Source of the DNA: Ferroacidibacillus organovorans
GTDB lineage: Bacteria; Bacillota; Bacilli; Alicyclobacillales; SLC66
NCBI RefSeq assembly: GCF_001642725.1
Contig: NZ_LSUQ01000006.1
Location: 62,001-101,975 of the forward strand
Direction: 5' to 3'
Length of the DNA stretch: 39,975 nucleotides
The notes below the pieces were generated by a model. The model was not told the DNA's origin. It did not search any database and was given only the letters and a program-made list of their open reading frames with translations. The translations under genes were made by a program, and so were the position numbers. How positions within the stretch are numbered: position 1 is the stretch's first letter; each line of letters begins with the position of its first letter. Shown here piece by piece: positions 16,489 through 20,138 of the stretch.

Positions 16489-16605
16489 CGTCTGTGTTCG
16501 CCCAAATCCTACCATTTCCCTTGCACGGCTTGAAAGACGGTGGAGGGTGTGGGAGAATGAGCTAAATAAACGAGGATTTACGTGAATGAGGGGTCATGGA
16601 AGAGC

Positions 16606-17952
16606 GTGAGTCGACTTTTTGGCACAGATGGGGTACGTGGCATTGCGAATGTTGGGCTGACACCGGAACTCGCATTCTCTCTAGGAGTTGCGGCAGCGAG
16701 TGTTTTAAAACTGCAGTGTACAGGGCGACCGAGCATGCTTGTCGGGAAAGACACGAGAATCTCGGGAGACATGCTAGAGTTTGCGCTGATCGCGGGCATC
16801 ACGTCGGCGGGTGTTGATGCTGTGCGCTTGGGAATTTTGCCTACGCCAGGTGTCGCCTATCTGACGAGGCATTCAGAGGCGTGCGCGGGTGTGATGATCT
16901 CAGCGTCACACAATCCGTTTGAGGACAACGGGATTAAATTTTTCGGTGCGGACGGGTTTAAACTTCTCGACGCACAAGAAGACGAGATTGAACGTAGGAT
17001 GGAGCGCACAGAAGCGGCAGACCGTCCGCAGCGTGAGCAGATTGGGCGTGTGTATGATCGACACGATGAAGTTGTGCGCTATCGGGACTTTCTTTCGTCG
17101 ACGCTTAAGGCGGATTTGACAGGGTTACACGTGGTGGTGGATGCGGCAAACGGCGCGGCATATGAACTCGCAAAGGCGCTCTTTGCGGAGCGCGGAGCGC
17201 GTGTGACGCTGTTGTCGGTTGAACCGAACGGGATTAACATCAATGTGGGATGTGGCTCGACGCACCCTGAGACACTGGCGCAAACGGTGAAGGATCTGAA
17301 AGCGGACGTGGGTTTGGCGTTTGACGGTGACGCAGATCGTTTGATCGCGGTAGATGCGAGCGGTGAGATCGTGGATGGGGATCGCATCATGCTGATTTGT
17401 GCGCATCACATGAAAAAGCACGGTCGCCTCCACGATGACACACTCGTGACGACGGTGATGAGCAACGTTGGGTTTGTGCGCGCGGCGCAGGAATTGGGAA
17501 TTCGGCTTGTGCGAACGGCTGTGGGCGATCGCTATGTGATGGAGGCGATGCGCGAAGGACACTTTTCGCTCGGCGGTGAGCAGTCGGGTCATCTGATTTT
17601 CCTCGATCTAACGACGACTGGAGACGGTATGCTCTCGGCGCTGCAACTGCTTGATGTGATGGCGCAGGAGAAAAAACCGCTTCATGAATTGGCGGCGATT
17701 ATGAAATCTTATCCGCAGGTGCTCGTCAACGTACGCGTAAAGGATAAGACGGCGTGGAGGACGAACGGCTCGATTCTTCAAATCATTCGTGAGATTGAGG
17801 ATGAAATCGGCGAGAATGGCCGCTTGCTTGTTCGCGAGTCAGGCACGGAGTCGCTTGTTCGCGTGATGGCAGAGGGACCGCAGGAGTCGCTTGTGCGCGC
17901 ACAGGTGGAACGCATCGTCGATGTGATTCGACGGGAGCTTGAGACAGCGTAA
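16606..17952 (+). CDS. glmM: Phosphoglucosamine mutase
   Basis: LFGTDGVRG, ISASHNP, FDGDADR, GGEQSGH, RESGTE. Confidence 0.98.
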   Translation: MSRLFGTDGVRGIANVGLTPELAFSLGVAAASVLKLQCTGRPSMLVGKDTRISGDMLEFALIAGITSAGVDAVRLGILPTPGVAYLTRHSEACAGVMISASHNPFEDNGIKFFGADGFKLLDAQEDEIERRMERTEAADRPQREQIGRVYDRHDEVVRYRDFLSSTLKADLTGLHVVVDAANGAAYELAKALFAERGARVTLLSVEPNGININVGCGSTHPETLAQTVKDLKADVGLAFDGDADRLIAVDASGEIVDGDRIMLICAHHMKKHGRLHDDTLVTTVMSNVGFVRAAQELGIRLVRTAVGDRYVMEAMREGHFSLGGEQSGHLIFLDLTTTGDGMLSALQLLDVMAQEKKPLHELAAIMKSYPQVLVNVRVKDKTAWRTNGSILQIIREIEDEIGENGRLLVRESGTESLVRVMAEGPQESLVRAQVERIVDVIRRELETA

Positions 17953-18048
17953 GACGTGGTGACTCTGCCTCGTTTTACGCGTCCATCCGCATGGTAAAGG
18001 GGGAATGCGCTTAGAAGAGGATCACACGCACAAAAAGCAGTTGTCGTA

Positions 18049-18195
18049 AGCGCCAGGACTGGACGGGACGAGATGTGCGCTCCAGTTGACGCGGTGGAGG
18101 TTGGCGAAGGACTCGGCGGGTGCCTCCCGGTGTAGATTCACACCGCGAAGATCAATGGGAAAATGGCAAGGTGACTTGCCGGACAGGACTTGATC
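18049..18195 (+). ncRNA. glmS ribozyme (GlcN6P-activated self-cleaving riboswitch) with variant core
   Basis: Cleavage site A18049/G18050 in AGCGCCAGGACT; P1 ACTGGA/TCCAGT; P2 GGAGG/CCTCC; TCGGCGGGTG; P3 CGGTGT/ACACCG; P4 GATCAA/TTGATC with GGCAAG-GTGA-CTTGCC GNRA hairpin; in the glmS leader. Confidence 0.95.
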
Positions 18196-18308
18196 AGAAT
18201 CAGAAGCGCTTGATGCGCTTCTCGCGCGAACGGAATAAAAGAGGGTGACGGAACCCTTGTTTGTCATTTCCAAAAACGCGCTTGAGCCGCGTGGGGAGGT
18301 TTCTTTCA

Positions 18309-20138
18309 ATGTGTGGAATTGTTGGCTATGTTGGACGTCGGCAAGCGCAGGATGTCCTGTTGTCGGGACTTGAAAAGCTGGAGTATCGTGGGTATGACTC
18401 AGCGGGCGTGGCGATTTTTGAAGATGGCGAGGTGCGCGTGGAAAAGTCGGTGGGCCGACTCGCGGTGCTCGGTGACGCGCTTATTGCACACCCTGTACGT
18501 GGAAATCAGGGGATCGGTCACACGCGATGGGCGACGCACGGGCGCCCCTCGAACGAGAATGCGCATCCGCACGCGGATTGCTCGCGCGCGTTTGTCGTTG
18601 TGCACAATGGAATCATTGAAAACTATCAGTCGCTGCGCGAGCAGTTGATGGAGAGCGGGCATTCATTCGCCTCAGAAACGGACACCGAGATTGTGGCGCA
18701 TCTCCTGGAAGAAGCGTGGACGGGCGATCTCTTTTCGACCGTGCTCGCGGTGCTTCCAAACTTGCGCGGTGCGTACGCGCTTGCGATCATGGCGAAGGAT
18801 GAACCAGGGAAGTTAATCGCGGTGCGCAAACAGTCGCCATTGGTCATCGGTCTTGGCGACGGGGAGCAATTCTTGGCGTCGGATATCCCTGCGCTCCTTG
18901 AATATACGCGGGACGTGTACATCCTCGAAGACGGGGAGCTTGCCGTTTTAGAGGCGGATCGCGTAGCCTGTTACGATCTCGCGGGGAATCCGGTTGGCAA
19001 AGAGATCTTCAACGTGACCTGGGATGCGGTTGCCGCCGAAAAGGGCGGCTATGAGCATTTCATGCTCAAGGAGATTCACGAGCAGCCAAAAGCGGTGCGT
19101 GACACGCTCAGCGGGCGGATCGCGGAAGATGGCTCGGCAGTGACGCTTGGCGAGCTTGACTTAAGCGAAGAAGTCGTTCAATCGATTGATCGCATCCACA
19201 TTGTCGCGTGCGGCACGTCGTACCACGCGGGACTTGTCGGCAAAGTTGCGATTGAAACGCTCGCGCGCATTCCTGTGGACGTTGAAATTGCGTCAGAATA
19301 TCGCTATCGCAACCCGATTGTAACGGATCGCACGTTGATTCTGGTCATCTCGCAGTCCGGGGAGACGGCCGATACGCTGGCTGCGCTTCGCAATGCGAAG
19401 ATGGCCGGCAATCGCGTCATGGCGATCACAAACGTGGTCGGCAGTTCAGCGGCGCGGGAGGCAGATCACGTTCTCGTCACGTGGGCTGGGCCTGAGATTT
19501 CCGTCGCTTCGACAAAGGCGTACACGACCCAGTTGATCGCTCTCTACCTGTTTGCGACGTATCTCGGGCAGATCAAGGGAACGCTCGCCTCTGATGAGCG
19601 TGCAAAACTATTGAACGCCCTGCTGGATCTGCCATTGAAGATTGACGAAGTCTTGAAAACGGCGCCGGCGATCGAGACGATTGCGCGCGATTTCTCTTCG
19701 TGGGATGACGCGTTTTTCCTCGGGCGGGGGCTCGATTTTGCAGTCGCCCTCGAAGGCGCGCTCAAGTATAAGGAGATTTCGTATATCCACGCGGAGGCGT
19801 ATCCGGCGGGCGAGTTGAAACACGGCACGCTGGCGCTGATTACGGAGGACGTCCCGGTCATAGCACTCGTGACGCAGGATGAACTCTACGAGAAAACGGT
19901 CAGCAACATTAAGGAAGTGAAGGCGCGCGACGCGCACGTTCTTGCGCTCGCCTGGGTGGGGGACGAAGAGATTGGCAAGAGTGTGGATCGCGTCCTCTAT
20001 GTGCCGCGCACGCTGCCCTTTTTGGCGCCTGTGCTTCTGGTTGCGCCGCTTCAACTGCTGGCGTATTACGCGTCAGTTGCGCGTGGGAATGACGTCGACA
20101 AACCAAGAAATTTGGCCAAGAGCGTCACGGTGGAATAA
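18309..20138 (+). CDS. glmS: Glutamine-fructose-6-phosphate transaminase (isomerizing)
   Basis: Starts MCGIVG (ATG 18309, SD GGAGG); LEYRGYDSAG, GHTRWATHG, SQSGET; ends DKPRNLAKSVTVE. Confidence 0.99.
   Translation: MCGIVGYVGRRQAQDVLLSGLEKLEYRGYDSAGVAIFEDGEVRVEKSVGRLAVLGDALIAHPVRGNQGIGHTRWATHGRPSNENAHPHADCSRAFVVVHNGIIENYQSLREQLMESGHSFASETDTEIVAHLLEEAWTGDLFSTVLAVLPNLRGAYALAIMAKDEPGKLIAVRKQSPLVIGLGDGEQFLASDIPALLEYTRDVYILEDGELAVLEADRVACYDLAGNPVGKEIFNVTWDAVAAEKGGYEHFMLKEIHEQPKAVRDTLSGRIAEDGSAVTLGELDLSEEVVQSIDRIHIVACGTSYHAGLVGKVAIETLARIPVDVEIASEYRYRNPIVTDRTLILVISQSGETADTLAALRNAKMAGNRVMAITNVVGSSAAREADHVLVTWAGPEISVASTKAYTTQLIALYLFATYLGQIKGTLASDERAKLLNALLDLPLKIDEVLKTAPAIETIARDFSSWDDAFFLGRGLDFAVALEGALKYKEISYIHAEAYPAGELKHGTLALITEDVPVIALVTQDELYEKTVSNIKEVKARDAHVLALAWVGDEEIGKSVDRVLYVPRTLPFLAPVLLVAPLQLLAYYASVARGNDVDKPRNLAKSVTVE

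Follow-up and report, generated by a model that had tools for sequence, protein, structure and literature searches.

A glmS ribozyme of Ferroacidibacillus organovorans carries a rare compensated C-G core pair and most likely functions like an ordinary glmS ribozyme

The glmS ribozyme is, to our knowledge, the only natural ribozyme that needs a small-molecule coenzyme, and its studied representatives are those of T. tengcongensis (Tte), B. anthracis and B. subtilis. The bases of its pocket are usually treated as invariant. We take O4 of U51 (Tte numbering) to contact the amine of GlcN6P, and presume a contact for A50 likewise. In the 66-nt Tte core construct, in which the Tte number of a residue is its core number plus 8, the strands of P2.1 are residues 28-30 and 43-45, the latter (Tte 51-53) contributing to the cofactor pocket (PMC7125110). 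The homologous A40 of B. subtilis belongs to a network that positions the scissile phosphate, and adenines of the P4 internal loop dock into the minor groove of P2.1 (PMC11602151). G40 has been named as the general base (PMC8495972, PMC5311495), and adenines at positions 49, 51 and 65 give a coenzyme-independent ribozyme, position 65 being the most important of the three (PMC5311495). In the consulted part of a 2007 survey, P2.1 is reported to lack significant covariation because its bases hardly vary (PMC2258182).

We analyzed a 39,975-nt stretch of DNA from F. organovorans, hereafter the window, and found that positions 18038-18205 of its forward strand form a full-length glmS ribozyme (Rfam RF00234, 83.4 bits against a gathering cut-off of 37, E = 6.7e-18) with P1, P2, P2.1, P2.2, P3, P3.1, P4 and P4.1. 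The match spans model positions 1-167 of 167 and is the sole RNA family match of the Rfam scan in the window. None of 100 shuffles of the window matched the core pattern; by both measures, the assignment as a glmS ribozyme is far beyond chance.

All elements of the ribozyme lie on the forward strand. Aligned to the consensus AGCGCC, the cleavage site A(-1)/G1 falls at A18049/G18050 (18049-18050). It is followed by the 5′ strand of P2.2 at 18051-18056 (C2, G3, C4 and C5, the unpaired A6, and G7), and a core-parsing script that follows the pair assignment of PMC7125110 joined the cleavage-site sequence A/GCGCC to the 3′ strand CGGCG at 18114-18118 with five of five pairs Watson-Crick. The P1 hairpin occupies 18057-18087, with one non-standard pair marked in the Rfam alignment, and P2 pairs GGAGG (18096-18100) with CCUCC (18123-18127) at all five positions. 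Downstream of P2, the P3 hairpin (18128-18145) carries a loop, GAUUC at 18135-18139, that by eye could form P3.1 through five Watson-Crick pairs with GAAUC at 18197-18201. P4 and P4.1 (18150-18195) include a GUGA tetraloop (18171-18174) and an adenine-rich internal loop made of AAAA (18160-18163) and GACA (18182-18185), whose AAA and ACA are invariant across the seven C-G ribozymes described below. The script also found the A54-U59 pair in the core of the window. The active-site guanines are intact, namely G1 (G18050), G40 (G18094, in the G39-G40 pair of residues at 18093-18094) and G65 (G18119).

The core itself departs from the consensus. It reads GACGCGG at 18088-18094 and GGAGGTTGGCGAA at 18096-18108, in the order GACGCGG, U, GGAGG, UUGG and CGA, whereas the consensus of the RF00234 alignment for this stretch is GACGAGGAgGaGguUuAuCGA (spaced, GACGAGGA gGaGg uUuAu CGA). 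The two differ at C18092, G18103 and G18104, and additionally at U18095, where the consensus has A. In Tte numbering, the 5′ strand of P2.1 is C36, G37 and C38 (18090-18092), with C38 in place of the usual A, and the 3′ strand is G51, C52 and G53 (18104-18106), with G51 in place of the usual U. The script paired C18090 with G18106, G18091 with C18105 and C18092 with G18104 (36-53, 37-52 and 38-51), all three Watson-Crick. Position 50, usually A, is G18103. The consensus pocket bases A50 and U51 are thus both absent and replaced by G18103 and G18104, whereas U49 and G65 are retained and position 51 is base-paired. The initial annotation had reported C18092, G18103 and G18104 in place of A38, A50 and U51, a compensatory change of the P2.1 A-U pair to C-G, and an intact G40, G65 and cleavage site; the sequence, the Rfam alignment and the script confirm all of these, and the Tte numbers given there agree with the core construct of PMC7125110 and with the residue names A35, G40, U49, 51 and G65 of PMC5311495. 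A50 and U51 characterize the consensus without being universal, as six other Rfam-positive ribozymes carry G51 and three of these also carry G50.

The same replacement is contained in a study that measured every single and nearly every double mutant of the minimal core (PMC7125110). Its data file numbers residues six higher than the paper, and the row A36C,T49G is core A30C/U43G, or Tte A38C/U51G. This double mutant has a kobs of 1.86e-3 per s at 10 mM GlcN6P, and its rate tracks the ligand, being 8.5e-4 per s at 2.5 mM, 4.2e-4 per s at 0.64 mM and 6.2e-5 per s at 40 uM (kcat 2.2e-3 per s, KM 2829 +/- 1589 uM). A36C alone (Tte A38C) lies at the detection floor (1.43e-6 per s) and T49G alone (Tte U51G) has 1.13e-3 per s; the second change rescues the dead A36C 1303-fold, and because of this rescue the pairing of 38 with 51 is shown experimentally. 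The consensus core has 6.4e-2 per s and a KM of about 2.0 mM. These kinetics therefore indicate that the C-G pair restores a GlcN6P-dependent ribozyme of unchanged apparent affinity, which in the minimal Tte core is ~34-fold slower than the consensus. At position 50, A48G alone (Tte A50G) has 1.03e-4 per s, ~620-fold down, and A36C together with A48G (Tte A38C/A50G) is dead. Among the source-data rows of that study examined here, the triple combination of the window occurs 0 times, and the G50 and G51 double occurs only together with a third mutation.

The species genomes were scanned with the conserved core letters fixed, a base other than A required at 38, and positions 50 and 51 left free. 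The scan returned at least 120 loci, and 114 of the 120 listed were chance matches in high-GC genomes. AGCGCC was present upstream in 10 of the 120; these ten, and ten more titled Bacillota, Clostridia, Chloroflexota or similar, were checked against Rfam, which confirmed glmS ribozymes at 6 of the 20 (70.8-94 bits, all full length). An nhmmer profile made from the alignment and run over the 120 listed loci returned the same six (E <= 3.7e-28), the next-best values, 0.024 and 0.19, belonging to two Rfam-negative loci. We found C38 and G51 in all six ribozymes among the matches listed, and G38 or U38 in none of them. Position 50 is G in three (L006, Alicyclobacillaceae; L020, Alicyclobacillus sp.; L049, a Bacillota MAG) and A in three (L059 and L012, Bacillota MAGs; L096, a Chloroflexia MAG). 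A GlmS N-terminus is encoded just downstream of each of the six, and the end of glmM lies upstream of five, L096 being stored with short flanks. The occurrence of the variant in at least six other species is a lower bound with no denominator. The ribozymes of the C-G carriers have a GC content of 0.56-0.66. A blastn search of the window ribozyme in distant mode against the plasmid collection gave no match. A pyrimidine at the P2.1 position in question is expected in PMC11602151 to disrupt core tertiary contacts; as judged from their sequences, the natural C-G lineages show that one is apparently acceptable when its partner also changes.

Because the GlmS N-termini have only 45-65 of 85 residues in common, among the six and with the window (53-76% identity to the window), the seven C-G carriers represent well-separated lineages. 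A tree of the first 160 GlmS residues (12 rows, with L096 omitted as only 27 aa were available) grouped only L006, L020 and L049, with support of 94/97, and left the other branches unresolved; the variant may have arisen once or several times. G50 is present in this group and in the window, whose nearest relative by GlmS N-terminus, L059, carries A50.

A control set was chosen independently of the core, through comparison of the GlmS protein with the plasmid collection (325 records). The comparators were the six Bacillota or Fusobacteriota among the 60 matches listed (H1, H2, H3, H4, H7 and H32, from the genera Paenibacillus, Acetoanaerobium, Subdoligranulum, Cetobacterium, Pusillibacter and Fusobacterium); a further record of Cetobacterium somerae, H5, was left out. 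A glmS ribozyme precedes glmS in all six (55.7-94.6 bits), each with A38-U51, and position 50 is A in five and U in one. When all 13 ribozymes are taken together, positions 38 and 51 form A-U in six and C-G in seven, and none has a mismatch; this tally is not a frequency, because the seven C-G ribozymes were selected for lacking A at 38. The U50 is that of Paenibacillus cellulosilyticus (L121 159-358, NZ_CP054613.1), where it accompanies the canonical A38-U51 pair (GGAGGCGUUCGA); position 50 therefore varies naturally outside the C-G lineages too. A 5-nt loop between CGA and UCGG, present in 7/7 C-G ribozymes, was considered as a variant-linked feature and rejected, since four of the six canonical comparators also have 5 nt there. 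The ribozyme of Subdoligranulum variabile (L123 12-253, OY725846.1) has an insertion of ~50 nt between P2 and position 50, and its Rfam score, 55.7 bits, is low. Three of the PLSDB plasmid records with glmS and its ribozyme (NZ_CP054613.1, NZ_CP154629.1 and NZ_CP084075.1) are 2.1-2.7 Mb long with 1-4 annotated features, and look like chromosomes or chromids filed as plasmids.

Located in the glmS 5′ leader, in the same orientation as the gene, the ribozyme ends at 18205, and glmS starts at 18309. The regulated gene is intact (18309-20138, forward strand, 609 aa) and matches NCBIfam TIGR01135 end to end with 830.7 bits; upstream lies glmM (16582-17952, forward strand; TIGR01455, 593 bits). Between 13586 and 20138 the order is sigW, a small ORF, cdaA, a YbbR-domain gene, glmM, the ribozyme and glmS, which we take to be the sigW-cdaA-cdaR-glmM-glmS order of Bacillus subtilis. 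Elsewhere, the window holds rpoA, truA, gerD, a SpoIIM-family gene, an arginase gene and NAD-synthesis genes, a content that suggests a chromosomal stretch from a spore former of the Bacilli. A simple scan found no match to a sigma-70-like promoter between the glmM stop and the ribozyme (17953-18048), and its only match in 17850-18400 falls within the ribozyme itself, at 18137-18164. The ribozyme may share a transcript with glmM, or may have a promoter of a type that a simple scan misses.

Two further features of the leader were observed. A terminator-like hairpin (GAGGGT...ACCCTT, then GTTTGTCATT) stands at 18241-18267, downstream of the ribozyme and ahead of the glmS start codon; its stem is weak, with 6 pairs of which 3 are G-C, and the match may be fortuitous or the hairpin may act as a minor attenuator. 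The distance from ribozyme to glmS is 103 nt in the window and ~250 nt in L059, and ~16 nt separate the ribozyme end from the glmS start in the Alicyclobacillaceae-like C-G carriers L006 (716-733), L020 (718-735) and L049 (716-733).

These comparisons bear on whether the three substitutions are real and whether the RNA is still active. A sequencing or assembly error would have had to introduce three specific substitutions, two of them complementary, and the same bases stand in the independent assemblies L006, L020 and L049; recurrence effectively refutes an error, the probability of which we regard as negligible. A relic in decay, no longer active but still recognized by the Rfam glmS model, would explain why three conserved core positions have changed, two of them in ways that are severe as single mutations, A38C being dead and A50G strongly impaired. 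The change at 38 is, however, exactly compensated at 51, the remaining core and the peripheral elements are intact, and C38 with G51 has been kept before glmS in six other diverged lineages. As decay would not repeatedly yield the same compensated pair, we consider a relic very improbable. The proposal that selection, rather than decay or error, accounts for the compensation is upheld by these data, since C38 and G51 occur together before glmS in 6/6 other ribozymes recovered with position 51 left free; the same result contradicts the idea of a one-off variant, as at least six other glmS ribozymes carry C38-G51. The suggestion of a shifted ligand affinity found no evidence in its favor: the double mutant responds to GlcN6P, and its KM of 2.8 +/- 1.6 mM compares with ~2.0 mM for the consensus.

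A bolder reading is that the ribozyme has been retuned, such that C38-G51 and G50 would alter coenzyme handling and these lineages would regulate glmS with different set-points, for example through another rate ceiling or pH profile, a changed discrimination against GlcN or Glc6P, an altered metal dependence, or cleavage that is partly ligand-independent. In favor of this reading, the substitutions lie in or next to the pocket strand (PMC7125110), position 51 is among the three positions of glmS-AAA that remove coenzyme dependence (PMC5311495), and the C-G double mutant is slowed in the minimal core. Moreover, G50 is found in four of the seven natural C-G ribozymes despite the large cost of A50G alone, which implies epistasis. 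Against retuning, the double mutant keeps its apparent KM and a rate that follows GlcN6P, and most mutations in that data set barely move KM (PMC7125110); G65, whose change is reported to matter most for the loss of GlcN6P use, is retained, as are G40 and G1, and the glmM-glmS gene context is ordinary. We therefore regard retuning as unlikely. It is similarly doubtful that C38-G51 marks a natural sub-class with a rebuilt pocket, in which G50 would be tolerated or needed only beside G51 and the catalytic set-point would be altered. If such a sub-class exists, its pocket would change the maximal rate, the pH profile or the discrimination among amino sugars, and it would represent a natural three-way epistatic solution beyond the reach of the published single- and double-mutant map.

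We infer instead, with good confidence, that the element is a working GlcN6P-activated glmS ribozyme in the glmS leader that happens to carry a compensated C-G pair. It would be the usual feedback device, because every defining part of a glmS ribozyme is present and located where such ribozymes act. Accumulated GlcN6P would bind the preformed pocket and serve as the catalytic coenzyme, and self-cleavage would follow between A18049 and G18050; degradation of the downstream glmS message would then lower GlmS synthesis, the feedback and mRNA-decay steps being those of the Bacillus literature (PMC6273943, PMC5473149). The compensated third pair of P2.1 would keep the helix and probably the ligand-facing chemistry too. 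In this orientation, a C-G pair should show the central major-groove pattern of A-U, with an amino donor on the side of 38 and a carbonyl acceptor at 51, and O6 of G51 could stand in for O4 of U51. A G-C or U-A pair could not substitute in this way, as its base at 51 (C or A) would offer an amino group instead. The argument, drawn from base-pair chemistry and from the presumed contact of U51 O4 with the amine, fits the occurrence of C-G as the only alternative in 6/6 recovered ribozymes and the unchanged KM. Mutational pressure toward GC in the GC-rich carriers may have favored the swap, which would also strengthen the three-pair helix. G18103, at position 50, would be an additional substitution, tolerated in these lineages alongside the C-G pair: G50 is harmful alone in the canonical core yet occurs in four natural C-G lineages, which suggests that it depends on the neighboring G51.

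Together, the sequence comparisons suggest that C38-G51 is a rare compensated core pair in a ribozyme that most likely functions like an ordinary one. The C-G lineages supply the missing natural covariation for the third pair of P2.1. That the sole alternative among the six recovered keeps a carbonyl at 51 fits a ligand-facing constraint, albeit in a small sample. The natural combination of G50, G51 and C38 also offers a cheap test case for epistasis beside an active site, and apart from the variant pair this is an ordinary element controlling the synthesis of cell-wall precursors. In the portions of the sources consulted, our literature search met no description of a natural C-G variant.

Compared with canonical glmS ribozymes (RF00234), the window RNA agrees in its full architecture, in the cleavage site and P2.2, in G40 and G65, and in its peripheral domain and position before glmS, a layout that the six comparators share; it differs from canonical ribozymes in having C-G rather than A-U at 38-51 and G rather than A at position 50. 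In the laboratory A30C/U43G mutant of the Tte core, the third pair of P2.1 is likewise C-G, although that mutant is a minimal core without P3 and P4 and keeps A50, whereas the window RNA has the peripheral domain and G50. Like glmS-AAA, the coenzyme-independent ribozyme evolved in vitro (PMC5311495, PMC6273943), it is changed at pocket position 51; unlike glmS-AAA, which has A at 49, 51 and 65 with G65A as the key change, it keeps U49, G65 and a paired base at 51. Its closest counterparts are the six natural C38-G51 ribozymes, with which it has in common the C-G pair, an otherwise canonical core and glmS downstream; it shares G50 with L006, L020 and L049, and differs in this base from L059, L012 and L096, which carry A50.
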